NCBI GenBank assembly: GCA_016199625.1
Contig: JACQGI010000039.1
Location: 2,379-66,378, forward strand
DNA length: 64,000 bases
Direction: 5' to 3'
Source of the DNA: Acidobacteriota bacterium
Lineage (GTDB): Bacteria; Acidobacteriota; Vicinamibacteria; Fen-336
Shown: piece by piece, positions 8,788-64,000 of the stretch
How the letters are laid out: each line of letters starts with the position of its first letter
Position numbering within the stretch: the stretch's first letter is position 1
The notes under the pieces: model-generated
Database searches by the model: none
Told to the model about the DNA's origin: nothing
Seen by the model: only the letters and a program-made list of their open reading frames with translations
Made by a program: the position numbers and the translations under genes

Positions 8788-8796
8788 GGAGTGTGC

Positions 8797-13498: not shown

Positions 13499-14010
13499 CC
13501 CTGGGCTATCATCGGGCCATGTCCACCACGGAGGCATCGGCCACGCCGCGCCCCCTCTCCGCGGCGGCGACGGCGCTCGCCACGGGGTTCGGGTCCGGCT
13601 ACTCTCCCTTCGCCCCCGGCACCGCGGGGTCGGCGGTGGGGCTGCTCTTGTTCTGGCCCCTCCAGGCGCTCCCGCCCGCCCAACAGGTCGTTGCCGTCGC
13701 GGTCGTCTTCTTCCTGGGCGTCGCCGCCTCGACCCACGTGGCTCGCCGCGCCGGGCTCGACGACCCGGGCTGCGTCGTGGTGGACGAGGTGGTGGGGCAG
13801 TGGGTGACGCTGCTCTTCCTGCCGTGGACGCCCGGAGTCGCCCTCGCCGGGTTCTTTCTCTTCCGCGTCATGGACGTGATCAAGCCGTACCCCGCCCGGG
13901 ACCTCGAGGCGCTCCACGGGGGCTGGGGCATCATGGCGGACGACCTGGTCGCGGGGATCTACGCGAACCTGCTGGTGCGGGTCGGCCTCATCGTGTGGCC
14001 CGCCTCGTGA
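13495..14010 (+). CDS. pgpA: Phosphatidylglycerophosphatase A.
   Basis: ALATGFGSGYSPFAPGTAGS...VVVDEVVGQW...FRVMDVIKPYPAR, the PgpA signature. The start may instead be the ATG at 13519. Confidence 0.7.
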   Translation: MTLGYHRAMSTTEASATPRPLSAAATALATGFGSGYSPFAPGTAGSAVGLLLFWPLQALPPAQQVVAVAVVFFLGVAASTHVARRAGLDDPGCVVVDEVVGQWVTLLFLPWTPGVALAGFFLFRVMDVIKPYPARDLEALHGGWGIMADDLVAGIYANLLVRVGLIVWPAS

Positions 14011-46185: not shown

Positions 46186-47769
46186 TCAGGGTCCCGCTGC
46201 GCGGGGCTGCGGGCGGACGTCGTAGAGGACGTAGTCGCCGCGATCGTGGGCCACGGGGTAAGGAAGCTCCAGGCGTGGCGTGCGGGCGCGGTCGACGAGC
46301 ACGTGGGTGACGCGCCAGCGCTGCAGGATGGCCCCCCGCGTCGCGAGATCCGCGCGCGGGTCCAGGAAGCGATCGACGTCCAGCACGCGCTGCCAGCCAC
46401 CCGCCGCCACCAGGAAGAGGTCGGGGTGCTGGGGTGCGACGACCTTGCGCCCGGCGAGTCCCGCGACGCCGTTGGCCGTGTCGCGGTCCGCGAGGACCAC
46501 GGCATCCTCCGGGGTGAGGCGTGCCACGAAGGCCAGGTCGGGCCTCTCCTGGCCGAGGAGCCAGCGCACACGTGCCCCCATCGAGAGGGCGCCGGCGGCG
46601 AGGAGTCCCACGGCCAGAGCACGCCCCCACCGGCCCCGCGCCCACGCGAGGTCGAGGAGGACCGCGGCGCCGATCTGCAGCGGGAGCGCCGCGAAGAAGA
46701 CGAAGCGCTCCCGCAGCGGGAGCACCGGGCAGAGGGCCAGCGCGACGTCCACGGCGAACCAGGCGACGAGGAAGGCGCGTCCGGACCCCGATACCAGCAC
46801 CGCTCCCACCAGGCCGAAGACGGCCGGCCCCAGGACGGCCACGAGCGGGACCACGAACGCCGCGGGATCGAGGGCTAGGGCGGCGCTGCTGACGAGGGCG
46901 GCCCCGCCTGCCGGCGGCACGCTCACGAGGCCTCCGGGGGCGGTCTGGCGCAGGCCGGGGTGGGCCGCGGCCTCGAGCAGGCCCAGGACAGGGTAATACG
47001 GCCACAGCGCCGCGAGGGCCAGGCCGGCCACGGGCAACCCGACGAGGAAGGCGGTCCGCGGCGCGCTCGCGGTGCGCCGGGCGAGGCCGACCCCCCCGAG
47101 TGTGACCAGGGCCGCCGCCAGGGCGAGAGCCGTCAAGGGGTGCGTGGCCACGAGGGCCGCCGTGAGCGCCACGGCGGCCGCGAGGGCGTGCGGTCGCGGC
47201 AGGCCCCGCTCGCCTCCGGGCGGAGGGAGGACGAGGCGCAGCACGAGGAGGAACAGCACCAGGCCGGCCTGGTGCGGGTAGAAGAAGTTCTGGGCGTCGG
47301 CGAGGGACGTCGTCCCCGGCCATCGCCAGGACGGCCACGAGATCGTGGCTCCGGGCCACGGTCCCCAGAGCAGCACCGCCGCGAGCAGGGACCATTGAGC
47401 CGCTCCCTCGCCGGCGAGTCGCGCCGTCGTGGCGCGCAGCGCGAGGGCGAACGCCAGGAGGTTGGCGAGGCCCGCAGCGTAGAGCAGATGGAGGGGATCC
47501 GTCCCCGTGAGGCGCGCCATGGCCCCCAGGAGGACGAGGTAGGGGCCGTAGTGACCCTGGGGGAGCCCCTCGTGCACGACGAGGTTGTGTTTCGGAGGGA
47601 ACTCGCCTTTGGCCAGCTCGCGAACCGCGGCCATGTGGTGCATGGCGTCGGTTCCGAGCCCGGCGCGCAACGGTGCATCGGCGTAGTACAGGGCCGCCAG
47701 GGAGACGCCGGCGAGGGCGACGCAAGCGGGGTAGAGCCCGTCGGTTCGCGAGGGACGGCCCGGCTTCAC
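46186..47769 (-). CDS. Polytopic integral membrane protein with a C-terminal soluble domain (possible ArnT/PMT-like glycosyltransferase; function uncertain).
   Basis: More than 10 hydrophobic helices. GTG start at 47769 overlaps the upstream EAL gene stop (GTGA). The family assignment is a guess. Confidence 0.5.
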   Translation of the reverse strand: MKPGRPSRTDGLYPACVALAGVSLAALYYADAPLRAGLGTDAMHHMAAVRELAKGEFPPKHNLVVHEGLPQGHYGPYLVLLGAMARLTGTDPLHLLYAAGLANLLAFALALRATTARLAGEGAAQWSLLAAVLLWGPWPGATISWPSWRWPGTTSLADAQNFFYPHQAGLVLFLLVLRLVLPPPGGERGLPRPHALAAAVALTAALVATHPLTALALAAALVTLGGVGLARRTASAPRTAFLVGLPVAGLALAALWPYYPVLGLLEAAAHPGLRQTAPGGLVSVPPAGGAALVSSAALALDPAAFVVPLVAVLGPAVFGLVGAVLVSGSGRAFLVAWFAVDVALALCPVLPLRERFVFFAALPLQIGAAVLLDLAWARGRWGRALAVGLLAAGALSMGARVRWLLGQERPDLAFVARLTPEDAVVLADRDTANGVAGLAGRKVVAPQHPDLFLVAAGGWQRVLDVDRFLDPRADLATRGAILQRWRVTHVLVDRARTPRLELPYPVAHDRGDYVLYDVRPQPRAAGP

Positions 47770-48995
47770 TCGGGGCCGGGGTCGGGCCGCGCCAGATAGA
47801 AGCCCTGGCCATAGTCGACCCCCATGGACTGCAGCGCCCGGCACTCCTCCTCGGTCTGGATCCCCTCGGCGATGACCGTGGCGCCGATGCCGTGGCCGAG
47901 GGAGATGATGGCCTTGACCATCTCCCGGTTGACCACGCTCGAGTGCACGTCCCGGATGAGCGAGGTGTCGATCTTGAGGAAATGGGGCTTGAGCCGCGCG
48001 ATGGCCTCGAGGCCGGAGTAACCCGCGCCCACGTCGTCGACGGCGAAGGACATCCCGAGGTCGGTGAAGTAGGCCATGGTCTCGCGGAAGAGGCCGTAGT
48101 TCTCGATGACGAGCTTCTCGGTGATCTCGATGACGATCCTGTCGGGGGAGACCTGGGCCCGGTCGAGGAACTCGATGAGGGGCCGGCCCCGGAACTGCGG
48201 ATCGCGGATCGTGGCCGGCAGCGTGTTCACGAAGAGTCGCGCGTTCGAAGGCACCCGTCCCGACGAGAGCAGGGCTCGAGCGCGGCAGAGCCGGTCCAGC
48301 TCCACCATGAGGCCGTGCTCTTCGGCGGCTCCGAAGAGCCCATCGGCCGTCTCGAGGCCCGTGCCGCGCGCCCCACGGGACAGGGCCTCGAAGCCCAGCA
48401 CGGTGCGGTCCTTCATGAGGAGGATGGGCTGGTAAGCCGTCACCACACGCTCCCGCACGATGAGGTCCTGCAGCCGCTCCCGGACCTGGATCTCCTCGGT
48501 CTTCCGGTGATGGCCGGCCTGGTCCAGTGCGCTCCGGAAGGCCTGGCTCACGATGCGGTCCGTCCCGACCAGGGGGTTGTAGAGGGCGATGGCGTAGCCG
48601 AGGTCGATCCGCGGCGGCGTCTTGAGGTAGGGGAACGCCGTGCGCGCCACGTTCGGCGCGAGGGACGTCAGCAGGCGCGTCCAGACGGCCCTGAGGTCGG
48701 TGAGGGACAGCGAGAGGTTCTTCCGGCGCTTGCGCTCGAGGAAGATCAGGAGCCGGAGCCCACGGGGCTCGTCGAGGGCGAGGATGTCTCCGCCGCGGAA
48801 GTCCTTGCCGCGCTGTTCCCGGAGCAGCTTGAAGAGGCGCTGGCGCACCTCCTCGTAGGCCTCGGACCCGTACGTGGACTCTACTATTCCGAGGGACGAC
48901 GCGTCCATGATGACGAGCCCGAGGTTGCCCCGCTCGGCGAGCTGCGCCTGGAGCTCCGGGACGCGCTCATGGTAGGTGGGGACCGGCTCGGTCAT
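47766..48995 (-). CDS. EAL-domain c-di-GMP phosphodiesterase with a degenerate GGDEF-like N-domain (paralog B).
   Basis: YQPIL, EAL(SR), NARLFVN, EITE, DDVGAGYSGL and KIDTSLIR motifs. ATG at 48995 overlaps the stop of paralog A (ATGA). Confidence 0.8.
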   Translation of the reverse strand: MTEPVPTYHERVPELQAQLAERGNLGLVIMDASSLGIVESTYGSEAYEEVRQRLFKLLREQRGKDFRGGDILALDEPRGLRLLIFLERKRRKNLSLSLTDLRAVWTRLLTSLAPNVARTAFPYLKTPPRIDLGYAIALYNPLVGTDRIVSQAFRSALDQAGHHRKTEEIQVRERLQDLIVRERVVTAYQPILLMKDRTVLGFEALSRGARGTGLETADGLFGAAEEHGLMVELDRLCRARALLSSGRVPSNARLFVNTLPATIRDPQFRGRPLIEFLDRAQVSPDRIVIEITEKLVIENYGLFRETMAYFTDLGMSFAVDDVGAGYSGLEAIARLKPHFLKIDTSLIRDVHSSVVNREMVKAIISLGHGIGATVIAEGIQTEEECRALQSMGVDYGQGFYLARPDPGPE

Positions 48996-50326
48996 GCGGC
49001 CCCGTCCACGGGCACGAGCACCGGCGGGGCGAGGTACCGCCCCTGCCCCAGCTTCACTCCCATGTCGCGGAGGGTCCTGAACTCGGACTCGGCCTCGATC
49101 CCCTCGGCGATGACCTCTGCGCCGATCTTCTCCGAGAGCTCCACGAGGGTCTCGAGGAGGCTGCGCTTGATGAGGCTGCGATCGATGTTCCGCACGAGCG
49201 AGATGTCGAACTTGAGGTAGTCGGGCTCGATCTCGACCACCGCCTGCAGGCTCGAATAACCGGCCCCCATGTCGTCGATGGCGATGCCGAAGCCCTCGGC
49301 CTTGAGGGTGCGCAGGACCTCCTGGTACGCCTGGCGCTCCCCGACGGCCACGCGTTCGGTGATCTCGAGGATCACGTCGGCGTGGTCGAGCCCCTGGCGC
49401 TCGACCTCCTCGATGAACCCCGGGCCGGCGACCTCGGGGTCCCGCAAAGCCCCCGCAGAGGTGTTCAGGAAGAGTTTGTTGCCCCTCCGGAGGTGCCGGC
49501 GAGCCGAGGCGAGGGCCCGGCTCCGGCAGAGGCGCTCGAAGTCCACCAGCCGGCCGGTGCGCTCCGCGAGGACGAACAGGCCCTCGGCGTCCTCGAAGGC
49601 GCTCCCCGCGGGGCCGCGGGTGAACACCTCGTGGCCCAGGACCGTGAGGTTCCGGAGGTCGAGGATGGGCTGGTACAGGGTGACCACCTGTCGGCTCCGG
49701 ATCAGGTCGTCCAGGCTCTGGGCCCGCCGGTCCTCCTCGCGGCTCCGATCCTTGAGGCACATGAACATGGCCTCGTCCAGCGCGCGGTGCACCGATCGCT
49801 CCGCGCGGAGCATCGGGTCGCGGTAGAGGAGAGCGTGGCCCTCGTGGAAGAGCAGCGGCACCGGGATGCCGTCGGGGAGGTGGCGGGGCAGCAGCGTGTC
49901 GAGGCGCTCGCGGAGCCGCGCGGCGAGGGCGTCCACGCCGGGGCGGTCCAGGGCGGCGGGGCCGGGGCCTCCGGCGCAGAGCAGGAACTTGTCGCCCCGC
50001 ACCGCGAGGACGGCGATGATGTCACGGGGGCCGAGCAGGCCTTCGGGGCGCAGGGCACCCAGGGCCTGCGAGAAGCCCCGCACGACCTCGTCGTAGGCGT
50101 GCCAGCCGTGTAGGGACTCGATGGGCGCGTTGGCCCCGAGGTCGAGGTACACGAGGCCGAGGGTGCCCCGCTCCTCGACCAGGCGCCGGACGTCGTCGAG
50201 GACGGCGGCCAGGGTCGGAAGCTCCGTGTTGGTGTCGAAGACGTGGTTCTTGAAGCGCAGCCACTCGCCGCGGAGCCTGAAGTATTCCTGCTCCTCCGGG
50301 CCGGTGCGCGCCATGGCCATGCTCAC
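48992..50326 (-). CDS. EAL-domain c-di-GMP phosphodiesterase with a degenerate GGDEF-like N-domain (paralog A).
   Basis: YQPIL, EVF(TRG), NKLFLNTS, EITE, DDMGAGYSSL and KFDISLVR motifs. The start overlaps the receiver gene stop. Confidence 0.8.
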   Translation of the reverse strand: MSMAMARTGPEEQEYFRLRGEWLRFKNHVFDTNTELPTLAAVLDDVRRLVEERGTLGLVYLDLGANAPIESLHGWHAYDEVVRGFSQALGALRPEGLLGPRDIIAVLAVRGDKFLLCAGGPGPAALDRPGVDALAARLRERLDTLLPRHLPDGIPVPLLFHEGHALLYRDPMLRAERSVHRALDEAMFMCLKDRSREEDRRAQSLDDLIRSRQVVTLYQPILDLRNLTVLGHEVFTRGPAGSAFEDAEGLFVLAERTGRLVDFERLCRSRALASARRHLRRGNKLFLNTSAGALRDPEVAGPGFIEEVERQGLDHADVILEITERVAVGERQAYQEVLRTLKAEGFGIAIDDMGAGYSSLQAVVEIEPDYLKFDISLVRNIDRSLIKRSLLETLVELSEKIGAEVIAEGIEAESEFRTLRDMGVKLGQGRYLAPPVLVPVDGAA

Positions 50327-50718
50327 GAGGCCGTCTTGCCGCCCGCGTCCATCTGGGCGAAGATCGCCTCGATCTTGCCGAGCAGCTCCTGGAGGGAGAA
50401 CGGCTTGCAGATGTAGTCGATGGCTCCTTCCTGGAGCCCCTGGACGCGGTCCTTGGCCTCGGTGCGGGCCGAGAGCATCGCCACGGGGATGTGGGCGGTC
50501 TCCTCGTCCACGCGGAGGAGCTTCAGGACCTCCCAGCCGTCCATCTGGGGCATCATGATGTCCAGGAGCACGAGGTCCGGTCTCTCGAGCTGCGCCCGCG
50601 TGAGCGCCTCGTGACCCCCGGAGGCCGTGACGACCTCGTAGCCCTTCTCGCGCAGCACCAGCTCCAGGAAGTGGAGGATGTCGTCTTCGTCGTCAACGAC
50701 CAGGATCTTCTTCTTCAT
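50323..50718 (-). CDS. Single-domain response regulator (CheY-like receiver, 131 aa).
   Basis: MKKKILVVDDEDDIL...LVLLDIMMPQMDG...KPF. ATG at 50718 overlaps the kinase stop. Confidence 0.85.
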   Translation of the reverse strand: MKKKILVVDDEDDILHFLELVLREKGYEVVTASGGHEALTRAQLERPDLVLLDIMMPQMDGWEVLKLLRVDEETAHIPVAMLSARTEAKDRVQGLQEGAIDYICKPFSLQELLGKIEAIFAQMDAGGKTAS

Positions 50719-53057
50719 AGTGCCGCCGGCCCCGTTCCCTCCGCAGTTGCGCCGATGTGGCGTCGGACCTCGGTGATGAGGGCTCGGACCTCGAAGGGCT
50801 TGCTCATGTACTTCCGGGCCCCGAGCGCCAGCCCCTTCTGCGCGTCCACGTCGTCGCCGCGCGCCGTCAGGACCACCACGGGGATCCCCGCGGTGGCCTC
50901 GTTGCGGCCCATGGCCTCCAGAACCTCGAACCCCGACAGCTCCGGCATCATGATGTCCAGAAGGATGAGGTCGGGACGCTGCCGTGCCATGACGTCCAGG
51001 GCCTGCCGGCCGTCGTAGGCCACGAGGACCCGGAACCCCTCGGTGCGCAGCGTGTCCCGGATGAAGTCCACGGTGTCGGTCTCGTCGTCCACCACGAGGA
51101 CCGTCGGCTCGCGGCCGGCGGAGCCGTTCAAGAGACGCTTCACCCTCGAGACGATCGAGAGGCGGTCCACCGGCTTCATGAGGCACTCCGCTGCGCCGAG
51201 GGAGAGGGCTTTCGGACTGTCGTTGGCGATGGAGACCACGAGGACGGGGATGCCGCGGGTGCCCGGATCCTCCTTCAGCGAGCGGAGGAGGTCGAGGCCG
51301 CTGCGGTCGGGGAGGAGCAGGTCGAGGAGGATGACGTCGGGGTGCCGGCGGGACGCGATCTCGGCCCCCTCGCCGGCCGTCATGGCCGTGAGGACCGAAA
51401 AGCCCTCCTCCTCGAGGTAGGTCCTCATCACCCGGAGGAAATCGGGCTCGTCGTCCACGACGAGGACGACGCCCTGGGGTCCCTTGCCGTGGCTGCGCTC
51501 TTCGCGGCTCACGGCCTGGCCCTTCTCCTGGACGGGCAGGGGGAAGTGGAAAGCTGTCCCGCGTCCCTCCTCGCTCTCCACGGCGATGGCGCTCCCGTGG
51601 GCGTCGAGGATGCTCTTGACGATCGCGAGGCCCAGCCCGACGCCGCCGAAACGCCTCGTGGTCGAGCCGTCCACCTGGTGGAAACGGTTGAAGATCTTCC
51701 CGATCTGGTCGCGGGGGATCCCGATACCCGTGTCCACCACGCTGATCGCGGCGGAAGCCCGCCCGGTGGCCACGACTCGCTGCGCCGAGACAGTGATGTG
51801 GCCCCCTTCCGGTGTGAACTTGAGGGCGTTGATGACCAGGTTCTCGATGACCTGGGAGATCTTCTCCCGATCCGCGATGACCGGGGGCAAGTCGGCCGCG
51901 ATCTGCGACCGGAACGTCAAGCCCTTCTTCTCCAGCTCGGACCTCAGCGTCGTGAGGATCTGGTCCACGAGTTGGGCGAGGGAGAAGGGCTGGATGTTGA
52001 GGACGATGCGCCCCACGTCCATCCGCGAGAAGTCGAGGAGCGCGTTGATGGACTTCGAGAGGCGCTCGAGGTTCCTCTGCACGACCACGAGGCCCTTCTC
52101 CTGCTTATCGGTGATGACGCCGAGCTTGCGGTCCAGGATGTAGTCCGTGTACCCCTTGATGGCGGTGAGGGGCGTGCGCAGCTCGTGGCTGACGTTGGCG
52201 AGGAGGTCGGACTTCATCCGGTCGAGCTCCTTCAGTTCCTCGTTGACCATGGCCAGCTTCTTGTTGGATTCCTCGAGCTGCTCGACGTTCTCTTTGAGCC
52301 GCTCGGTCATGTAGTTGAAGGCCTCGGCGAGGATCTGCAGCTCGTCTCCAGAGCGGATGGAGAGCCGTCGGTCGAAGTGGCCCTCGGCGATGGACTGGGC
52401 GCCCCGGGTGAGCTCCTCGAGGGGCCGCGTGATGCGCGTGGCCAGAGCCACCGCCACCAGCACCGAGGCCAGGATCGAGAGGAGGGTCAGGCCCCCGGTG
52501 GCGTAGATCAGCTTCTCGATGTTGGGGCGGAGGTTCTTGTAGGAGACGTGGTACGAGACCGAGAGCCGGTGGCGTCCCCAATCCTCGATGTAGGGGGCGA
52601 TGATCTCGAGGGTCTCGGTCCCGGCCGGGTCCCGTCCCCGGATCGTCGTGGGCTCGAGGCGCTTGATGGCCTCCAGGCGCTCGGCGTCCTCCACCCACCG
52701 CTCGGCTGCGGCCCCCTCGCCGTGGGGGCTGGCCTCGTCGAGCTCCGTGGAGTCGAAGAGGATCTTCCCGTTCACGTTGATGATGAGGATCCGCTCCACG
52801 TCCTCTTCGAGACGGAGATGGTCCCGCATGAGCTCCCGGAACTTGTAGAAGCCCGAGGCGTAGTAGGTCTCGTAGCCGACGCAGATGGGGGTGCGGGTGA
52901 GCAGCGCGAAGAGGTAGGCCCGGTTCTCGATGTCCCGGCGCAGCTCCTTCCGCTTGGTGAGGATCAGGTAGACGGCGTTGGCCACCAGGATGACGACGAT
53001 TACCGACGCGATGGCGAGCGCCGTGCGCGTCTTGAGGCTGTTGAGCCTGAGGGCCAT
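50715..53057 (-). CDS. Hybrid sensor histidine kinase (sensor - HAMP - HisKA - HATPase - REC - REC).
   Basis: H-box LANVSHELRTPLTAIKGY. N, G1 and G2 boxes. Two receiver domains (VVLVVDDEPDF...LLDLLLPD and VLVVDDETDT...LLDIMMPE). ATG at 53057 with an N-terminal TM segment. Confidence 0.85.
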   Translation of the reverse strand: MALRLNSLKTRTALAIASVIVVILVANAVYLILTKRKELRRDIENRAYLFALLTRTPICVGYETYYASGFYKFRELMRDHLRLEEDVERILIINVNGKILFDSTELDEASPHGEGAAAERWVEDAERLEAIKRLEPTTIRGRDPAGTETLEIIAPYIEDWGRHRLSVSYHVSYKNLRPNIEKLIYATGGLTLLSILASVLVAVALATRITRPLEELTRGAQSIAEGHFDRRLSIRSGDELQILAEAFNYMTERLKENVEQLEESNKKLAMVNEELKELDRMKSDLLANVSHELRTPLTAIKGYTDYILDRKLGVITDKQEKGLVVVQRNLERLSKSINALLDFSRMDVGRIVLNIQPFSLAQLVDQILTTLRSELEKKGLTFRSQIAADLPPVIADREKISQVIENLVINALKFTPEGGHITVSAQRVVATGRASAAISVVDTGIGIPRDQIGKIFNRFHQVDGSTTRRFGGVGLGLAIVKSILDAHGSAIAVESEEGRGTAFHFPLPVQEKGQAVSREERSHGKGPQGVVLVVDDEPDFLRVMRTYLEEEGFSVLTAMTAGEGAEIASRRHPDVILLDLLLPDRSGLDLLRSLKEDPGTRGIPVLVVSIANDSPKALSLGAAECLMKPVDRLSIVSRVKRLLNGSAGREPTVLVVDDETDTVDFIRDTLRTEGFRVLVAYDGRQALDVMARQRPDLILLDIMMPELSGFEVLEAMGRNEATAGIPVVVLTARGDDVDAQKGLALGARKYMSKPFEVRALITEVRRHIGATAEGTGPAAL

Positions 53058-53205
53058 GGCCAGCCTTGAACCACCGGCGCGCGCGCCCCCCCAATTCTCC
53101 GGATCCGAAGGCGGGTGGCCGAGGCGACTCGGATGATAGCCGGTTCCCCGGTGCCGCACAAACCCCCGGCACCGGCTAGAATACCAGCCCCGCGGAGGTT
53201 CGCCC

Positions 53206-54225
53206 TTGCCCATCCTGGCCCGGTTCCTCAAGGACCGGGGCATCGTCACCGAGAGGCAGCTCGAGGAGGCGATCCAGCACCAGGTGCTCTACGGGGGCCG
53301 CCTGGGGACCAGCCTCTACGAGCTGGGCTTCATCACCGAAGAGCGCCTGCAGGAAGCCCTGGGACGCGTCCACGGCGTGCCCACGACCGCCGTGGACCTG
53401 CGGGAGGTGCAGCAGGAGGCCGTGGCCCTGGTCCCCAAGGTGCTGGCGGCCAAGCACAAGGTCTTCCCATACCGCATCCGCGGCAAGACCCTCGACCTGC
53501 TGATGGTGGACCCGCAGGACCACGCCACCGTCGCCAAGGTGGGCTACTCCATCGGCTACATCGTCCGGCCGCTGGTCGTCCCCGAGTTTCGGATGATCCA
53601 GCTCCTCAAGGACTACTACGGCGTGGACGAGCGCTGGCGGTTCAGCGACACCCACCGGCCCGCCGCGCCAGCCGCGGCGCCCCTCGAGGCGTTGGCGCCG
53701 GAGAGTGCAGCGGCACGGATCGAATCCGCCACGACCCGCGACGAGGTCGTGGAGGCGCTGCTGGCCCTCTGCGCCCGGACGTTCCGGCGGGTCGTCTTTT
53801 TCATCGTGCGTGAGCCCTGGGTCATCGGCTGGAGCGGCGCCGGCGAGGGCATGGACCGGGCCCTGGCGTCGAGCCTCCGCATCCCCCTGGACCAGCCGTC
53901 GGTCTTCCAGACGGTCACGCGGGACAAGACCGTGTTCGTGGGACGCTTCGGCCCCGAGGAGGAGAACCAGCGCTTCCTGAAGGCCGTGGGCAAGCGGCCC
54001 ACGACCAACGCCGCGCTCTTCCCCCTCGCCGTGAAGGGGCGGGTGGTGAATCTGGTCTACGGCGACGCCGGCGCCACGGGGAACGTCAAGGCCAACCTCG
54101 GGGACCTCATGGTCGACGTGCAGAAGGTCCCCCGGGCGTATCTGAGGATCATCCGCCGGAGGATCGCGGAGACCCGCAAGGCCGCAGGCGTCGCCCCCGA
54201 AGGTGCGGAAGACGGCGAAGACTAG
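53206..54225 (+). CDS. T2SSE_N (GspE/PilB N-terminal)-domain protein with a C-terminal DUF4388-like region.
   Basis: ARFLKDRGIVTERQLEEAIQHQ...GGRLGTSLYELGFITEERLQEAL matches the GSPII_E_N pattern. TTG start preceded by GGAGG. Confidence 0.55.
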   Translation: MPILARFLKDRGIVTERQLEEAIQHQVLYGGRLGTSLYELGFITEERLQEALGRVHGVPTTAVDLREVQQEAVALVPKVLAAKHKVFPYRIRGKTLDLLMVDPQDHATVAKVGYSIGYIVRPLVVPEFRMIQLLKDYYGVDERWRFSDTHRPAAPAAAPLEALAPESAAARIESATTRDEVVEALLALCARTFRRVVFFIVREPWVIGWSGAGEGMDRALASSLRIPLDQPSVFQTVTRDKTVFVGRFGPEEENQRFLKAVGKRPTTNAALFPLAVKGRVVNLVYGDAGATGNVKANLGDLMVDVQKVPRAYLRIIRRRIAETRKAAGVAPEGAEDGED

Positions 54226-57452: not shown

Positions 57453-59975
57453 GTGCCGGGCCTCCTCCTCCTCGTCGCGCGCGACCTCCTCGTGCACGAC
57501 CCGCCGCGAGTGCTCGCGTGGCGAGCTCTCCACGACCCGCGCCTCTCGAGCCTGCCGGCCTGGCTCGCGCCGCTCCTGCCGCGACCCCGCCCCGAGCTGG
57601 ATGCCGACCCCGTCGCGCTTCTCCTCGGGGCCCTCGCCATCGGCTTCGCCGCCGCCTATCTTTTCGCCGCGCTGCGCGGCGCGCGGGTCGTCCTGCGCGC
57701 GGCGCTCGTGGCCGCGTCGGCCGCTACGCTCGTCGTCCTCCCGACGGCGGCCTTCGTCGGCCTCGGCATCGCGACGGATCGGCCGTTCGGGCAGGACGGC
57801 GGCGTCGTGCAGCTTCCCCTGGCCCTCGACAGGCTCCTCGCCGGCGAGAGCCCGTACGGCGCCGACTACTCCGACAGCATCCTCGGCAAGGAGGCGCGGG
57901 CCTCGGACTTCTGGAGCGCCCACGGCGGCAACCCGATCCTGCGGCACCACGCCTACCTGCCGGGGACCCACCTTGCGATGATGCCTTTCTACCTGTACGC
58001 GCGTGCGCTGGGGGCCTCTTTCGACCCTCGGGCCGTCACGCTCCTCGGGTGGCTCCTTGCGGTCGGCCTCGCCGTGCGCCTCGTCGAACACGTCTCCGCG
58101 CGGCTCGCCGCTGCGGCAGTCGTCGCCCTGAACCCGCTCGTCTACTGGCACCAGATCTTCGGTGCCAACGACCTGCTGGTCGTGGCCATGGTGCTGGCGG
58201 CGGTCCGGCTCGCCACGGCAGGACGCCCCCTCGCCTCGGGGGCGTTGCTCGGCCTCGCGTGCGCCACCAAGCAGCTCGCCTGGCCGTTCGCGCCCTTCCT
58301 TCTGGTCCACCTCTCCGGTGCGGGCACCTTCGGCGAGCTCGCCGGCCGCACCGCCCTCCGCCGGCTCGCGGGGCCGTCCCTCGTCGCGACGGGAGTCTTC
58401 GCCGCGATCGTCGCTCCCGTGGCGGCGCTGGACCTCGCCCGGTTCTGGGGCGACATCGTCGTCTACAACGTCGGGCTTCCCGGCGCGGACAACTATCCTC
58501 TCGGCGGAACGCCGGGCTTCGGCTTCGCCAACTACCTCGTCTACTTCGGCACGGTGGCGAGCCTGCAGGAACACGCTCCCCTGGCCGGCTTCTACCTCCT
58601 CCTGGTGCCCGTGGGGCTCCTGCTGCTGCGCCACCAGATGCGCAGCGGCGCCGCGGCGACGGTGCTGGTCACGGGGAGCGCGGCGCTGCTGGCGTCGCTG
58701 TACTTCTCCCGGGTGGTCCACGCCAACTACCTGGTGCTGCCCGCGATCCTCCTTCCGCTGGGATTCCTCATGGGGGAGCGCCGGTCCGCCGACGTGGCCG
58801 CCGTGCCGCTGCTGCTCCTCGCCCTCGCCGTAGAGGTGGCCGAGGGCGAGCTGTTCCGTGCAGCGTGGGAGGACGCGGTGAACGCGCGCCTGCCGCGCTA
58901 CCTCGAGGGGCTCGCGGCGACGCTGGCTCCGCGGGCCGGCCCCGACCTCACCCAGGACCCTCTGGGCCTGCTCGTGAGCGCCACGGCCGCGGGGCTGGGC
59001 GTCGCGTACGTCGTGGCCGGAATCCTCGGTGCGTCGGTCCGCGCGCGCGTCGCCGTGGTCGTGGCAGGGGCGCTGCTCGTCGTGGCGCTCCCCACGCGCG
59101 CGCTCGTGCGCATCGGCGAGGCCACGGGGACTCCCCGCGTCCAGGCGTCCTTCGCGGCGTCGGTGCTGGCGGGGATGCGCGCCTCCGACGCGCCGCCGGT
59201 GCGGGAGGCGTGGAGCGCGAGCTTCCGGAGGGACCCGCCCCGGCGGCTCGAGGCCGACGTGCCGTCTCCCGCGGCGCCGGCGCTGGGCCGCCTGTTGCGG
59301 GCCCTCGGGCTGCGCGACCCGCGGCCCCTGGCGCTGGTGGCGTTGGCCGTCTCCCTGATGCTGCTCGTCGTTCTGGTTCCGCAGCCGGCTGTCCCCCTCG
59401 TGTCGGGGATCGCGCTCCTCGCTCCGCCGGCAGCCGTCGGCGTCGCGTTCGGCTCCGGCGACGTCCTGGTCCTTGCGGCGGCCCTCGGCGCGCTCCTCCT
59501 GCGCGCCCGCGGTCGATCCCTGGCCTCGGGGGTCGTCCTGGGCTGCGTAATCCCCCTCGCGCCTCTCGCCGTTCTGCTCTCGCCGCTCGTGCTGTCACCG
59601 GACCGTCTGTTCGCCCGGCGTGCCCTCGGTGGTCTCGCTCTCGGTGCCGCGATCATCACGGGAGCGGCGCTGCTCCTCGACCCGGAGGGCTTCGCGGACG
59701 GGTGGACGCTCGCGGGGCCCGGCTCCGGACTAGGGAACCTCCTCCTCTACTTCGGGGCCGGAGACGCCTCCCTGCGCCTGGCGACGCTCGCCCTCGGGGC
59801 GGCGGTCGTGGCCCTCGTCGCCTTCGCGATGGGTCGCGGCCGGAGGGCCGAGGTCAGAGCGGCGGCGGCTGTGGGGGCCGCGGCGCTCGTGGCGGGCGCG
59901 GTCCTCGCGCCCTGGAGCTCGCCCCACGACCTCGCCGTGCCGCTCGCCCTGCTGGCTGTCGCCAGCGCGGACTGA
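57453..59975 (+). CDS. 840-aa polytopic membrane protein (possible DUF2029/GT87-like glycosyltransferase; function uncertain).
   Basis: More than 20 hydrophobic segments. The [15 protein letters not shown] motif resembles mannosyltransferase-like membrane proteins. GTG start. Confidence 0.55.
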
Positions 59976-60071
59976 CCTCCGCGAACGGTTCTGGCGGAGC
60001 CGATGTCCTCTCCCCTCGTTCGACCGACGAGGTCAGGGGATTCCTGAGCTCCGTTTACGGTCATCTGGGCC

Positions 60072-60088
60072 GCGGGCCGATGGCCCGC
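60072..60088. terminator. GC-rich hairpin (gcgggcc-gat-ggcccgc) between the membrane-protein gene and the tRNA. Possible bidirectional terminator.
   Basis: Perfect 7-bp stem with a 3-nt loop. No U-tract, so this is weak. Confidence 0.2.
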
Positions 60089-60095
60089 AAGTGTG

Positions 60096-60180
60096 TGGTG
60101 CCGGAGGCGGGACTCGAACCCGCATGGGTTTCCCCACACGCCCCTCAAACGTGCGTGTCTGCCAATTCCACCACTCCGGC
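60096..60180 (-). tRNA. tRNA-Leu (anticodon GAG), class II with a long variable arm, CCA encoded.
   Basis: Folded by hand. Acceptor stem GCCGGAG/CUCCGGC. D stem GUG/CAC. Anticodon stem CACGU/GCGUG with loop UUGAGGG (U33, GAG, purine 37). Variable arm of 13 nt. T stem GCGGG-UUCGAGU-CCCGC. Discriminator A plus CCA. Total 85 nt. Confidence 0.85.
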
Positions 60181-60207
60181 ACGGAACGGTGGCGAACGGA
60201 ACTCCGG

Positions 60208-60236
60208 ATTTTAGAGGCCTGGAGCGGCCCTGTCAA
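60208..60236 (-). promoter_or_regulatory. Consensus sigma-70 promoter, TTGACA-N17-TAAAAT, driving tRNA-Leu.
   Basis: Reverse complement of 60208-60236. The -10 element ends about 27 nt upstream of tRNA position +1. Confidence 0.5.
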
Positions 60237-60381
60237 TCCGGGCCCCCTCGGGCCAGCGGAGCCCTTCCCGAACCGCGGCGGAAGCCTTCCCGAGCTCACC
60301 GCACGTGCGAACGACGGATCAACGACTTGCAGCCTCCGGCGCACGGCACGCCCGTTGCCTCAGAGGGTGGCGGAGGGACGC

Positions 60382-60549
60382 ATGGACCGACACGGCGGGA
60401 ACTTGAGCTTCGGCGAGGTCGCGGGCGGGCTCACGGCGCGAACAGGGTGGACCTGGGACGAGGGGCCGGAGCCGACCGCGGACGGACGAGAGGAGGCCAG
60501 CGGCGCGGAAGGCGCCCCTGCGGCGTCGGAGCCGGGAGACCGGTCGTGA
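60382..60549 (+). CDS. 55-aa acidic, disordered small ORF (hypothetical). Absent from the ORF track.
   Basis: A GGAGGG Shine-Dalgarno sits 5 nt upstream of the ATG. Third-position GC is high. Its stop overlaps the next ORF start (GTGA). Confidence 0.3.
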   Translation: MDRHGGNLSFGEVAGGLTARTGWTWDEGPEPTADGREEASGAEGAPAASEPGDRS

Positions 60550-60860
60550 GCCGCCCGCGCCGCTTCGTGTTCATCGACGGCCGCGAGGTCGAGGCTGATT
60601 CCCCGGTGGCGCTGCTCGAGGCGCTTCGCGGCAGCGAGCACCTCCCCCCGGCGACCCTCGATCGCTACCTGGACCTGCTCCACAGCCGCGGCGCCCTCGG
60701 CTTCGGCCTGCGGCTCGACGTGGGAGCGCCCGGTGAGGCCATCGAGGCACGCTGCCACAGAGCCCTTGGCAGCCTCATCGCCTTCGGCTGGGTGCGACCC
60801 GTCGCCTCGGCGCGCCGGCGTGTTGCCGGTCGGTGCGTCCCGATCAGGACAGGTCCCTGA
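60546..60860 (+). CDS. 104-aa hypothetical protein (tail of track ORF 60093..60860).
   Basis: VSRPRRFVFIDGREVEADSPVALLEALRGSEHL... Third-position GC is about 85%, well above the genome average. It overlaps the convergent oxidoreductase gene end by 17 nt. Confidence 0.35.
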   Translation: MSRPRRFVFIDGREVEADSPVALLEALRGSEHLPPATLDRYLDLLHSRGALGFGLRLDVGAPGEAIEARCHRALGSLIAFGWVRPVASARRRVAGRCVPIRTGP

Positions 60861-62418
60861 GGATCTCCCGCGCGGCGTTGGCGCCCGGGCCCCCCGTGAC
60901 GCCGCCGCCGGGATGCGTCCCGGCGCCGCAGAGGTAGAGCCCCTCGACGGGCGTCCGGTAGCGTCCCCAGCCCAGGAGGGGGCGCATGGCGAAGAGCTGA
61001 CCGAGGGACGGCTCCCCGTGAGAGGGGTGACCGCCGGTGAGGGCGTAGGTGCGCTCGAGGTCGAGGGGCGTGAGGACGTGACGGTCGAGGACGAGGCCGG
61101 CGAGGCCGGGGGCGTACGCCTCGAGCGTCCGCAACACGGCGTCGCCCACCTCGTCGCGACGCGCGTCCCAGCTTCCCTCGCGCAGGCGGTAGGGCGTGTA
61201 CTGGACGTACACCGACATCACGTGACGGCCGCTGGGTGCGAGGCTCGGGTCGGTCAGGGTGGGGATCGTGACGTCGAGGTACGGAAGTCGCGAGATCCCG
61301 CCGTACTTGGCGTCGTCGTAGGCGCGCTCGAGGGCGTCCACGCCCGGCCCCACGTGGATCCGTCCTGCGAGCGTCGCGGCCGGGTCTCGCCCGTCGAGGC
61401 CCTCGAATGCGGGGAGCGCCGAGAGCGCGAGGTGGACCTTGGACGCCATCCCTTGGGCTTGGTAGCCCCGCACTCGTCGCAGCTCCTCGGGATCGAGGAG
61501 CGCCGGATCCAGGAGGCCCAGGACCGTCCGGCACGGGTCGGCGCCCGAGACGACGGCGCGAGCCACGACCTCCTCCCCGCCCGCGAGGACGACCCCGGTA
61601 GCGCGTCCGTCCGAGGCCGTGATGCGCGCAACCTCGGCTCCCGTGCGGACCTCGACCCCCAGGCGACGTGCGGCGCCCGCCAGGGCTTCGGAGAGAGCGC
61701 CCAGGCCGCCTTTCACGAGGACGGTGGATCCGGCGCCGTTGCCGTCTCCGGCGGCAGCCGAGAGGAGCAGGTTCGCCGTCGTGCCGGCGGACCAGGGCCC
61801 CGCGAAGACGCCCGAGATTCCGCGAGCGCAGACCATCGCGCGGAGCAGCTCGGTCTCGAACCACTCGGCGGCGAAGTCCGCGACCGCCATGGGCCCCCAG
61901 CGTAGCAGCCGCTGGGCGTCCTCGCGCCCGAGGCCGCGGAAGGCGAGGCCCGCCCCGAGGAGCCCCCACAGGTCGCGCGGGCCCGGCGCGTCCAGGTCCG
62001 GCGGCGTCATCTCGAGGACGCGGGCGAGCATCCGTGCGATGCGTGTCAGGGAGAGGTGGAAGGCCGCGTAGCGGTCGGCGTCGCGCGTCGAGAACGGCCG
62101 GATCTCCGCGGCACAACGCACCGGGTCGCCGAAGAGCGCCAGGCCCCGCCCGTCCGGGAGCGGCGCGAAGAACCGGGGCTCGGGCTCGACCGTCTCCACC
62201 GCGAGCCCCAGCTCGCGGACGACAGCGGCGCGGAGTGGACCGGCCGTGTGGGCGAGGCTCGACACGCGGAAGCCGGGGGCGAACTCCTCGGTGACGGCGG
62301 CGCCGCCGACGCGGTCGCGCCGCTCGAGGAGCAGCGTCCTGAGCCCGCCCTTCGCGAGCAGCGCCGACGTCACGAGGCCGTTCACGCCTCCGCCGATGAC
62401 GACGACGTCGGGTCTCAC
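60844..62418 (-). CDS. Phytoene-desaturase-family (CrtI-like, COG1233) NAD(P)/FAD-dependent oxidoreductase, paralog 2.
   Basis: N-terminal Rossmann motif VVVIGGGVNGLVTSALLAKGG...LERRDRVGGAAVTEE. C-terminal GTHPGGGVTGGPG. GTG start overlaps the paralog 1 stop (GTGA). Confidence 0.8.
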   Translation of the reverse strand: MRPDVVVIGGGVNGLVTSALLAKGGLRTLLLERRDRVGGAAVTEEFAPGFRVSSLAHTAGPLRAAVVRELGLAVETVEPEPRFFAPLPDGRGLALFGDPVRCAAEIRPFSTRDADRYAAFHLSLTRIARMLARVLEMTPPDLDAPGPRDLWGLLGAGLAFRGLGREDAQRLLRWGPMAVADFAAEWFETELLRAMVCARGISGVFAGPWSAGTTANLLLSAAAGDGNGAGSTVLVKGGLGALSEALAGAARRLGVEVRTGAEVARITASDGRATGVVLAGGEEVVARAVVSGADPCRTVLGLLDPALLDPEELRRVRGYQAQGMASKVHLALSALPAFEGLDGRDPAATLAGRIHVGPGVDALERAYDDAKYGGISRLPYLDVTIPTLTDPSLAPSGRHVMSVYVQYTPYRLREGSWDARRDEVGDAVLRTLEAYAPGLAGLVLDRHVLTPLDLERTYALTGGHPSHGEPSLGQLFAMRPLLGWGRYRTPVEGLYLCGAGTHPGGGVTGGPGANAAREILRDLS

Positions 62419-64000
62419 CGGATCCTCCCGCGATCCCAGTCGCGCAGGATCTCGAAGGCCGCGAGCCGTCCCGGGGCCCCCATGATCCCGCCGCCGGGGT
62501 GCGTGGCCGACCCGCACATGTACAGGCTGCGCACCGGCGTCCGGTAGCGGGCCCAGCCCGGCACGGGCCGGAGGAAGAAGAGCTGCTCGAGGCTCAGCTC
62601 GCCCTGGAAGATGTTGCCCTCTGTGAGGCCCCATTCCCTCTCGAGGTCCAGGGGCGTGAGCACTTGGCGGTGGAGGACGAGGCTCTTCAGGTTCGGGGCG
62701 AACTCCGAGAGGGTGTCGATCACCGCGTCGCCGAAGGCGTCGCGCTTCTGGTCCCAGTTCCCTTCCCGCAGCTTGTAGGGGGCGTACTGCACGAAGCACG
62801 ACATCACGTGCTTGCCCGGGGGGGCGACGCTCGGGTCCGTGAGCGACGGGATCACGACGTCCATGTAGGGCCGGCGCGAGAAGTCGCCGTACTTGGCGTC
62901 GTCGTAGGCTCGCTCCATGTACTCGACGCTCGGCGAGATGGAGATCGCGCCGCGCAGGTGGGGCCCCGGGCCGGGAAGACACGTGAAGTCGGGAAGGCCG
63001 TCCAGGGCCAGGTTCACCTTCCCCGACGAGCCCCTCAGCTTGTACCGCCGCACCTCGCCGAGGAAGCTCTCGTCCAACGCCCCCGGCTCGACCATCTTGA
63101 GGAAGGTGCGGTGGGGGTCGACGCTCGACACCACCACGGTCGCGTCGATCTCCTCGCCGCCCTCGAGGACGACGCCCGTCGCGCGCTCGTCGCGGACCTT
63201 GATCCGCTCGATGGCGGCCTTCGTCCGGATCTCGACCCCCGCCTCGCGAGCCGCGCCGGCGATCGCCTCGCTGATGGCCCCGGTTCCGCCCCGGGAGAGT
63301 CCCCAGGAGCGGAAGACGCCGTCGATCTCCCCCATGTAGTGGTGCAGGAGCACGTAGGCGGTGCCCGGCGAGCGCACGCCCAGGAACGTGCCGATGATGC
63401 CGCTCGCCGACATCGTGGCCTTGAGCACGTCGGTCTCGAACCACTGGTCCAGCATGTCGGCGGCGCTCATGGTCATGAGCTGGATCAGGTTGTGCTGGTC
63501 CCGGCGGGGGAGCCGCTGGAAGCGGCGGCCGAGGCCGGCGAGGCGCGCGAGGCCCAGGATGTCGAGGGAGAGCGGGTCCGGGGGGACCATGGCGAGGATG
63601 GGCTTCACGAAGCGCGCCATCTCCACCATGGCCTTCGCGTAGTCGTCGTAGGCCTCGGCGTCGGTGGGCGAGTGGCGGTAGATCTCGCGCCGTGTCCGGC
63701 CGTGGTCGCTCATCCTCCAGAGATGGTCGCCGTCGGGCATCGGCGTGAACGTGCCGTCGAGGGGGAGGATCTCCAGGCCATGCCGCGGCAGGTCCAGCTC
63801 CCGGATGATCTCGGGGCGCAGGAGCGAGACGACGTACGAGCAGACGGAGTACTTGAACCCGGGGAAGATCTCCTCGGTGACCGCGGCGCCTCCGACCAGG
63901 TGGCGCCTCTCCAGGACGAGGACCCGGCGGCCGGCCTTGGCCAGGTAGGCCGCGCTCACGAGGCCGTTGTGGCCCCCACCGACGACCACCACGTCGTAGC
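62415..64000 (-). CDS. Phytoene-desaturase-family (CrtI-like) NAD(P)/FAD-dependent oxidoreductase, paralog 1. Its 5' end probably continues beyond the window.
   Basis: VVVGGGHNGLVSAAYLAKAGRRVLVLERRHLVGGAAVTEE...GSATHPGGGIMGAPG. The reading frame stays open to position 64000. Confidence 0.8.
   Translation of the reverse strand, partial: YDVVVVGGGHNGLVSAAYLAKAGRRVLVLERRHLVGGAAVTEEIFPGFKYSVCSYVVSLLRPEIIRELDLPRHGLEILPLDGTFTPMPDGDHLWRMSDHGRTRREIYRHSPTDAEAYDDYAKAMVEMARFVKPILAMVPPDPLSLDILGLARLAGLGRRFQRLPRRDQHNLIQLMTMSAADMLDQWFETDVLKATMSASGIIGTFLGVRSPGTAYVLLHHYMGEIDGVFRSWGLSRGGTGAISEAIAGAAREAGVEIRTKAAIERIKVRDERATGVVLEGGEEIDATVVVSSVDPHRTFLKMVEPGALDESFLGEVRRYKLRGSSGKVNLALDGLPDFTCLPGPGPHLRGAISISPSVEYMERAYDDAKYGDFSRRPYMDVVIPSLTDPSVAPPGKHVMSCFVQYAPYKLREGNWDQKRDAFGDAVIDTLSEFAPNLKSLVLHRQVLTPLDLEREWGLTEGNIFQGELSLEQLFFLRPVPGWARYRTPVRSLYMCGSATHPGGGIMGAPGRLAAFEILRDWDRGRIR

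Follow-up and report, generated by a model that had tools for sequence, protein, structure and literature searches.

We analysed positions 60,096 to 64,000 of a 64-kb stretch of DNA from an acidobacterial metagenome-assembled genome (MAG); the whole stretch is called the window, and all feature coordinates given below are positions in it. The region is probably an unremarkable piece of chromosome in which three independent transcription units meet, namely a tRNA-Leu(GAG) gene, an operon of two small genes (ORF55 and ORF104) and an operon of two tandem flavoprotein genes (ox2 and ox1). The three units are probably neighbours by descent, as inherited synteny, and form no functional cluster. Judged from their sequences, ORF55 and ORF104 are real, conserved genes. 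Among relatives that carry names, the one nearest to the source MAG is a Vicinamibacteria MAG. Loci of relatives and of other genomes are designated L001 to L019, and homologous proteins carry P-numbers. A sequence-only reading of the region had described the tRNA gene, a Shine-Dalgarno sequence, both small ORFs, GTGA overlaps and the tandem flavoproteins, and almost all of this anatomy was recovered at the coordinates given:

60096..60180, minus strand: tRNA-Leu(GAG) gene, 85 nt, class II (ARAGORN; Rfam RF00005)
60208..60236, minus strand: sigma-70-type promoter of the tRNA gene, TTGACA-17 nt-TAAAAT (consensus scan; conserved in L001)
60318..60329, plus strand: element resembling the consensus of integration host factor (IHF), ATCAACGACTTG (consensus WATCAANNNNTTR; pattern ATCAANNNNTTR; equivalents in L001, L009, L012 and L015)
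60345..60358, plus strand: putative sigma-54-type -24/-12 box, GGCACGCCCGTTGC, with the ORF55 ATG 37 nt downstream (pattern count, conservation)
60372..60377, plus strand: Shine-Dalgarno sequence GGAGGG, ending 4 nt before the ORF55 ATG (read from the sequence)
60382..60549, plus strand: ORF55, small acidic protein with the N-terminal motif LSFGEVAGGLTARTGWTWD and a variable acidic tail (homologues in L001/L002 and L012)
60546..60860, plus strand: ORF104 (HY317_05740, hypothetical protein), orphan alpha/beta domain with a basic C-terminal tail (codon-position GC, homologues)
60844..62418, minus strand: ox1, 524 amino acids (aa), second gene of the tandem COG1233 flavoprotein pair (Pfam, neighbour-joining tree)
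62415..64000, minus strand: ox2, first gene of the pair, 531 aa in the deposited record (100% match to P0035)

ORF55 encodes 55 aa, 11 of them acidic (D+E) and four basic (K+R), in agreement with the earlier description of an acidic ORF led by GGAGGG. The GTG start codon of ORF104 overlaps the ORF55 stop codon as GTGA, and the GC content of ORF104 at the three codon positions is 0.78/0.57/0.85, as is usual for coding DNA; the overlap and the third-position GC (GC3) of about 85% for this 104-aa ORF had both been read correctly, as had its convergent overlap with the 3' end of ox1, which measures 17 nt. The exact sequence of ORF55 was missing from a protein collection that contains its annotated neighbours, and a word-based search yielded no homologues of it. 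Homologues in L001/L002 and L012 were found by reading the neighbours of ORF104 relatives. In the lower-GC relative L001/L002, the order is tRNA-Leu(GAG), a spacer of ~210 nt, AGGAGG, a 54-aa ORF, an ATGA overlap, an 88-aa ORF and then a convergent oxidoreductase gene. ORF55 and the 54-aa ORF of L001 have the N-terminal motif L[ST]FGE..GGLTAR.GWTW[DE] in common, and their acidic tails have diverged. The core of the motif (FGE..GGLTAR.GW.W) comprises 17 residues, and when its 17 codons were compared across the window, L001, L012 and L015, 7–12 codons differed per pair, 2–8 of them synonymously. These synonymous changes at conserved motif residues argue that ORF55 is translated. A 132-aa ORF on the opposite strand (60360-60758, minus strand) shares third-codon positions with ORF55, so that GC3 alone cannot separate the two; conservation of the motif on the plus strand decides for ORF55.

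ORF104 has five clusters of homologues at 60–65% identity. Its family is rare: an HMMER scan of 1.84 billion representative proteins returned only 27 relatives, nearly all of 66–141 aa, a profile scan of metagenomes with a 12-sequence family alignment found only three loci, and a scan of GTDB representatives found one. A tblastn search of ORF104 against plasmids gave no match. The sequence-only reading had named a lack of homologues and of expression as grounds for dropping the small ORFs, and homologues were found for both. Its statement that the pair is uncharacterised also held, as neither protein matched anything in Pfam, NCBIfam, PADLOC, PHROGs or the PDB; a profile search of PDB sequences with the ORF104 family was likewise without match.

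The most plausible reading takes the two small genes for modules of a single orphan family, which is rare and lineage-restricted. In proteins P0013 and P0021, the ORF55 motif, a linker of 12–20 aa and the ORF104 domain stand in one chain. The fusions suggest that the two products act together and that the ORF55 motif may bind the ORF104 domain. As in other split and fused (Rosetta-stone) pairs, the halves are separate coupled genes in some genomes (the window, L001) and a single polypeptide in others; unlike in such pairs, either half is also retained by itself in some genomes, and the two may therefore interact only facultatively. Thus L012, which is syntenic with the window over a kinase, MshEN, MFS and GT87 genes, tRNA-Leu, ox1 and ox2, has kept a 55-aa ORF55 homologue and has no ORF104, and L009 carries GT87, the tRNA gene and a 94-aa ORF104 homologue and has no ORF55. 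Solitary ORF104 homologues were also found in other contexts (L003/L004/L008, L005 and L017). In the window, the ORF55–ORF104 operon would be transcribed rightwards, divergently from the tRNA gene, and the GTGA overlap would make translation of ORF104 depend on ribosomes that terminate on ORF55. Programmed -1 frameshifting between the two ORFs was considered and rejected, since no slippery heptamer precedes the stop codon in the window or in L001; termination-reinitiation coupling is therefore likely.

Module 1 would be a Trp/Gly-rich peptide motif of ~17 residues, and module 2 a domain of ~85 residues with the order beta-beta-alpha-alpha-alpha-beta, several nearly invariant Arg residues, one invariant Cys and a basic tail. 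This topology was predicted for ORF104 by AlphaFold2 from a six-sequence alignment, with a mean predicted local distance difference test (pLDDT) score of 80.8. With 25 sequences and P0013 as target, the block-mean pLDDT exceeded 90 across the domain. Residues L42, R48, G60, R69, C70, L77 and W82 are invariant in the family, and R40 and R84 nearly so. Foldseek found no PDB neighbour for either model (best E-values 0.28 and 0.71, TM-scores <0.3). Among the viral models of BFVD, the ORF104 model matched the uncharacterised phage proteins A0A516M232, A0A516M4C6 and A0A6J5N672 (79–86 aa) with target-normalised TM-scores of 0.69–0.83 at 13–18% identity, the best being A0A516M232 (E 1.2e-4, TM-score 0.83); on these models, ORF104 may share its fold with small phage proteins. 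A winged-helix assignment was not adopted, as HTH_IclR/TrmB matches were confined to helix 3 in 2 of 25 members at E ~0.05 and had no Foldseek support. Two further proteins were set aside as family members. P0033, of 603 aa, owes its match to a 'CKFTFIDGTKSD.HSP' unit that it repeats at least six times, and is probably no true relative. In P0026, the C-terminal half of the domain follows an unrelated N-terminal segment, which by eye only we take to be the beginning of a glycosidase of the GH35 type; this protein is probably a chimera of assembly or gene calling.

We hold with low confidence that the small pair forms a regulatory or adaptor complex, and not an enzyme, in which the ORF55 motif would bind the ORF104 domain. 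Some family members lie beside genes for receiver-domain and MshEN/type II secretion system (T2SS)-ATPase proteins: two receiver-domain genes adjoin the homologue in L015, and an MshEN/T2SS-ATPase/receiver gene adjoins that in L003 and L005. Elsewhere the neighbours are the tRNA gene and oxidoreductases (window, L001, L012) or a UPF0175/DUF3368 pair and an M50 peptidase gene (L017). The window itself has a dense signalling block at 47766-54225, composed of two EAL genes in tandem (47766-48989 and 48992-50326), a receiver-domain gene (50323-50760), a hybrid HAMP/HisKA/HATPase/REC kinase gene (50715-53249) and a gene for an MshEN-domain protein (53206-54225). The group-B ORF104 homologues of L003, L005 and L008 lie directly upstream of an MshEN/T2SS-ATPase/REC gene, so that an association with MshEN genes recurs faintly.

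The upstream regions of the small genes in the window, L001, L009 and L012 were aligned, and two conserved blocks emerged. Block 1, GGCA[CT]G-N4-TTGC, is the core of the sigma-54 -24/-12 consensus, which we defined by GG at -24, GC at -12 and the canonical spacing TGGCAC-N5-TTGC. The box of the window (GGCACG-N4-TTGC) has these elements at this spacing. The pattern GGCAYG-N4-TTGC occurs twice in the 64 kb (0.14 expected) and, among 18 fetched loci, only at the homologous sites of L001, L002, L009 and L012. Boxes with one mismatch were found in unrelated contexts, in L017 (CGCACGGCCGTTGCA) and in the fusion locus L015 (GGCATGCGCCATGC), and overall the box recurs in six related or unrelated contexts. 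Its position is conserved between orthologous sites, as the distance from box to start codon is 37–42 nt in the window, L001, L009, L012, L015 and L017. The other match in the window (7798-7811) lies inside an NtrY-like histidine-kinase gene (6571-8787), ~1 kb upstream of a sigma-54 activator gene, and is probably due to chance. Block 2 matches the IHF consensus, and its pattern has no other match on either strand of the window (0.09 expected). The IHF-like sites lie 15, 15, 14, 5 and 5 nt from the -24 GG; the spacings fall into two classes (5 or 14–15 nt upstream of the box) about one helical turn apart.

From these sequence patterns, we infer that the ORF55–ORF104 operon has a promoter of the sigma-54 type, accompanied by an IHF-like site for DNA bending. 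Transcription would start at ~60370 and produce a leader of ~12 nt that contains the Shine-Dalgarno sequence. A promoter of this type would need an enhancer-binding ATPase, and the operon would be silent until activated by one; a protein with Sigma54_activat, REC and HTH_8 domains is encoded at 8791-10206. The arrangement resembles sigma-54/IHF promoters of the glnA, pspA, nifH and Pu types in its GG/GC elements at canonical spacing, its conserved position relative to the gene, the A/T-rich IHF-like element just upstream and the presence of a sigma-54 activator gene in the window. It differs from them in that the IHF-like site is unusually near the -24 box and that neither an upstream activator site nor a cognate activator was identified here.

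The tRNA gene appears to be a separate unit. ARAGORN called a single tRNA in the window, a tRNA-Leu with anticodon gag and of class II size, and the Rfam tRNA model scored 49.6 bits against a gathering score of 29, which confirms the assignment made from sequence. The gene is identical in L001, and tRNA-Leu(gag) was also called at the syntenic position of L009 and L012. The minus-strand hexamers TTGACA (60236-60231) and TAAAAT (60213-60208), 17 nt apart, agree with the consensus at 11 of 12 positions. The earlier reading was thus right that a sigma-70 promoter is present, and its description as perfect has to be relaxed to near-perfect. This promoter is the sole promoter-like match in 59900-60900 (shuffled sequences gave 0.0 expected), and L001 keeps both hexamers with a diverged spacer. 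The tRNA would be transcribed leftwards from this strong, conserved promoter, and 201 nt separate it from the ORF55 ATG, close to the 200 nt estimated before. We rejected a functional link of the tRNA to the small genes, since it is absent in L003, L015 and L017. We also rejected a mobile element integrated at the tRNA: no integrase was found among the window proteins scanned against Pfam, a check that included no repeat search, as the sequence-only reading had also noted no integrase, and L012 and L009 show synteny for the flanking GT87, MFS and MshEN genes. The interval of L012 from its ORF55 homologue to tRNA-Leu(GAG) (13494-13980) holds a 96-aa ORF that is antitoxin-like by eye and has no Pfam hit; next comes a truncated PIN-domain ORF extending into the tRNA gene (Pfam PIN E 0.0013, below the cut-off). 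This segment looks like a decayed VapBC-like insertion at a tRNA-proximal spot.

The third unit comprises ox2 and ox1, which are 51% identical paralogues. The GTG start codon of ox1 (62418-62416) overlaps the stop codon of ox2 (62417-62415) as GTGA, as had been described. The window end cuts ox2; the deposited protein has 531 aa, so the start codon is expected ~10 nt past 64000. Both proteins belong to the Pfam Amino_oxidase family (PF01593: 76.6 and 61.8 bits against a threshold of 19.8; profile positions 3-431 of 443), match NAD_binding_8 at 43–44 bits and have the GxGxxG Rossmann motif for FAD (VIGGGVNGL in ox1, VVGGGHNGL in ox2). More than 120 clusters of ox2 homologues share 81–88% identity with it, at least 8000 relatives were found at E <1e-50, and a close relative is labelled Vicinamibacteria. 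Identity among relatives is 83–86% for the ox2 type and 64–76% for the ox1 type, which is the faster-evolving one.

The tandem arrangement is conserved. Pairs with a 4-nt overlap recur in L010, L011 and L012, and, at ~50% identity, tandem pairs also occur on plasmids of Rhizobium, Parasedimentitalea and Fuscovulum (L013, L014 and L019), so that adjacent paralogous genes of the kind known from the subunits of CtmAB were found at all of these loci and in the window. In a rough neighbour-joining tree of 10 sequences without an outgroup, first genes grouped with first genes and second genes with second genes across phyla, a pattern in keeping with the subunits of a single ancient enzyme. Such a reading of tandem 'phytoene dehydrogenase-like' genes has a precedent in Castellaniella defragrans, whose limonene dehydrogenase CtmAB belongs to COG1233 and is heteromeric and non-carotenoid, with two adjacent paralogous flavoprotein genes that are both needed for one reaction (PMC4109377). 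The likeness drawn here is one of gene arrangement. CtmA and CtmB are 27% identical to each other, compared with the 51% of ox1 and ox2. The Ctm cluster also has ferredoxin and ferredoxin reductase genes; no ferredoxin genes were seen beside the pair in the window or in L010–L012. We infer, from sequence and gene order, that ox2 and ox1 form a heteromeric FAD-dependent dehydrogenase. They would be translationally coupled, in an operon convergent with that of the small genes, and would, as its two subunits, make up a CrtO-like flavoprotein that is ancient, widespread and distinct from carotenoid desaturases.

Gene neighbours offer hints to the substrate. The alphaproteobacterial plasmid operons (L013 8986-13368, L014 8974-13372, L019 4632-12625) have a TetR regulator in front and contain genes for a GcvT-type aminomethyltransferase, a class-III aminotransferase and Rieske oxygenase subunits; amine or polyamine ABC transporters adjoin them. 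From its gene content, this operon looks like an uncharacterised amine-catabolic pathway, and our literature search on an oxidoreductase–aminomethyltransferase operon found nothing relevant. In L010–L012, ox2-ox1 is preceded by a deoxyhypusine-synthase-like gene at a distance of zero to three genes (PF01916 at 244.7 bits in L012), and the context of the acidobacterial pair may be polyamine-related. The regions concerned are 6407-9861 in L010, 8015-9082 in L011 and 8846-9913 in L012. In L010, a CMD-family gene and a radical-SAM/DUF3641 gene stand directly upstream of the pair. As likeliest substrate of ox2/ox1 we would tentatively put forward an amine or N-methylated amine, a choice suggested by this gene context and held at less than even confidence.

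The sequence-only reading had instead proposed that the two genes encode a two-step carotenoid desaturation or isomerisation pathway like that of myxobacterial CrtIa/CrtIb. Several features agree with this. Both proteins fall in the broad CrtI/COG1233 superfamily, and their best PDB sequence match is Pantoea CrtI (4dgk, E 1.9e-17 and 3.4e-21), to which they align over the full length, with ~520–530 aa and a GxGxxG Rossmann domain. CrtIa and CrtIb are likewise two paralogues in one genome, the top NCBIfam models are the carotenoid enzymes CrtO and crtI_fam, and JGI names relatives 'phytoene dehydrogenase-like protein'. However, the scores lie far under every curated carotenoid cut-off. Against crtI_fam (TIGR02734), ox1 reached 120.4 and ox2 125.2 bits, about half of the cut-off of 238.1; CrtO (NF045689), the best-scoring model and one that aligns end to end, gave 227 and 310 bits against an equivalog cut-off of 1000; and the CrtD and carotenoid isomerase models stayed below 100 bits with cut-offs above 500. 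CrtO, moreover, acts alone and not as a tandem pair. NCBI gives P0035 only the generic name NAD(P)/FAD-dependent oxidoreductase. Pfam scans found no phytoene synthase (SQS_PSY), polyprenyl synthase or lycopene cyclase domains among the window genes of 1-60000, and flanks of 10 kb around the pair were free of crt genes in L010, L011 and L012, so that no crtB/crtE/crtY context was found within these stretches. Homologous pairs stand in amine-catabolic operons, and the vertebrate CrtO-like protein PYROXD2, reported to be ~35% identical to Synechocystis CrtO, was without carotenoid activity in one assay (PMC12010460); its function is unknown, and an association of its locus with the levels of trimethylamine and dimethylamine has been described (PMC8777681, PMC3169529). 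By grouping with non-carotenoid COG1233 proteins, the ox2/ox1 pair shows the very outcome that the sequence-only reading had named in advance as speaking against its proposal. On this sequence evidence, a carotenoid role of ox1/ox2 is not supported, and we regard it as very improbable.

For the small genes, three other explanations were weighed. The least credible, to which we assign very little weight, is that ORF55 is no gene, its reading frame having arisen by chance in the 5' leader of a functional ORF104. Its absence from the protein collection and from the word-based search results, a GC3 signal that fits the antisense ORF equally well and the ORF104 homologue of L009 that lacks an ORF55 would agree with this. 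They are set against the motif with its synonymous changes at four loci, a Shine-Dalgarno sequence at the right distance, gene calls in L001, L002 and L012, persistence of the ORF55 homologue alone in L012 and the in-frame presence of the motif in P0013 and P0021. It is also improbable, if slightly less so, that the pair is a toxin–antitoxin module or a precursor of a ribosomally synthesised and post-translationally modified peptide (RiPP) with its recognition protein, beside a tRNA gene. The small size of the genes, their 4-nt overlap, the tRNA neighbour, the acidic tail on one product and basic tail on the other, the conserved, 'leader-like' N-terminus and variable C-terminus of ORF55 and the PIN-like remnant at the same tRNA in L012 fit such modules. 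Against them, toxin and antitoxin families and PqqD/RiPP recognition element (RRE) models gave no match in Pfam, NCBIfam or PADLOC, with PqqD/RRE (PF05402) absent from all 25 sequences of the family even when E was relaxed to 5, and no RRE or toxin fold was detected because Foldseek found no PDB fold neighbour. In the window, no maturase is adjacent to the pair, nor does a radical-SAM or cyclodehydratase gene adjoin it; the variable ORF55 tails are without Cys; and modules that are fused in relatives and also found singly are atypical of both systems.

We give a comparably small chance to the third explanation, that the small proteins serve the neighbouring oxidoreductases as assembly factor, regulator or electron-transfer adaptor. 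ORF55, ORF104 or both adjoin the 3' end of ox1 in the window, L001/L002 and L012. Yet these loci are close relatives (ox2 types 83–88% identical), so the synteny may be inherited, and the convergent orientation means that the small genes and the ox genes are not co-transcribed. The association is also broken in both directions, as L011 and the proteobacterial operons have the oxidoreductase pair without the small genes, and L003/L004/L008, L015 and L017 have small genes without an adjoining pair.

A number of observations weigh against the readings that we prefer, that is, a two-module adaptor under sigma-54 control and a two-subunit amine dehydrogenase. The ORF55 motif has a pLDDT of only ~50, so AlphaFold2 shows no docking on the domain, and since either module can occur by itself, the complex need not be obligate. 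The neighbours of the family (tRNA gene, receiver-domain genes, MshEN ATPase, toxin–antitoxin pair, M50 peptidase) are inconsistent and establish no functional partner. The group-B relatives L003 and L005 lack the sigma-54 box, and the putative promoter rests on sequence and conservation. On the oxidoreductase side, the amine assignment has two sources, the Pfam Amino_oxidase fold and the gene neighbourhoods of distant taxa, no aminomethyltransferase gene adjoins the pair in the acidobacterial loci, and the tree is small and lacks an outgroup.

The surroundings are those of a chromosome. The deposited contig with HY317_05740 is 125,682 bp long. Upstream lies the gene for a GT87/DUF2029 membrane protein (MBI3932897.1, 57453-59975), and Pfam scans of the window genes in 1-60000 identified the housekeeping genes ftsY, ffh, rimM, trmD, rnhB, ribE and ribBA. 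Signalling genes are numerous in this part and include histidine kinases, receiver domains, the two EAL proteins, the MshEN protein, FHA domains, a Ser/Thr kinase and the NtrY-like kinase with its sigma-54 activator.

These findings overturn nothing in current understanding, and their novelty is modest. New, as far as sequence comparison can tell, are a conserved small gene missing from a protein collection, an orphan family whose modules occur split and fused, and a clean sigma-54/IHF promoter signature. Read together, the data would describe a sigma-54-controlled two-part signalling adaptor in Acidobacteriota, made of a Trp/Gly peptide and a receptor-like domain in split, fused and single form, along with ox2/ox1 operons that point to the substrate class of the PYROXD2 branch; we regard this joint picture as speculative and rather unlikely to be right in all its parts.

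The small-protein operon offers an inexpensive test case for the function of small proteins in an uncultured lineage. For the oxidoreductases, the practical consequence is that phytoene-desaturase-like tandem genes in soil Acidobacteriota should not be annotated as carotenoid genes. The ox2/ox1 pair would be a very widespread and highly conserved two-subunit flavoprotein, with amine-catabolic neighbours in Proteobacteria. As a lead only, ox2 may closely resemble PYROXD2 and be a protein of that type; if the link were true, the bacterial operons would offer a workable way to find what the product of a human mitochondrial disease gene acts on.

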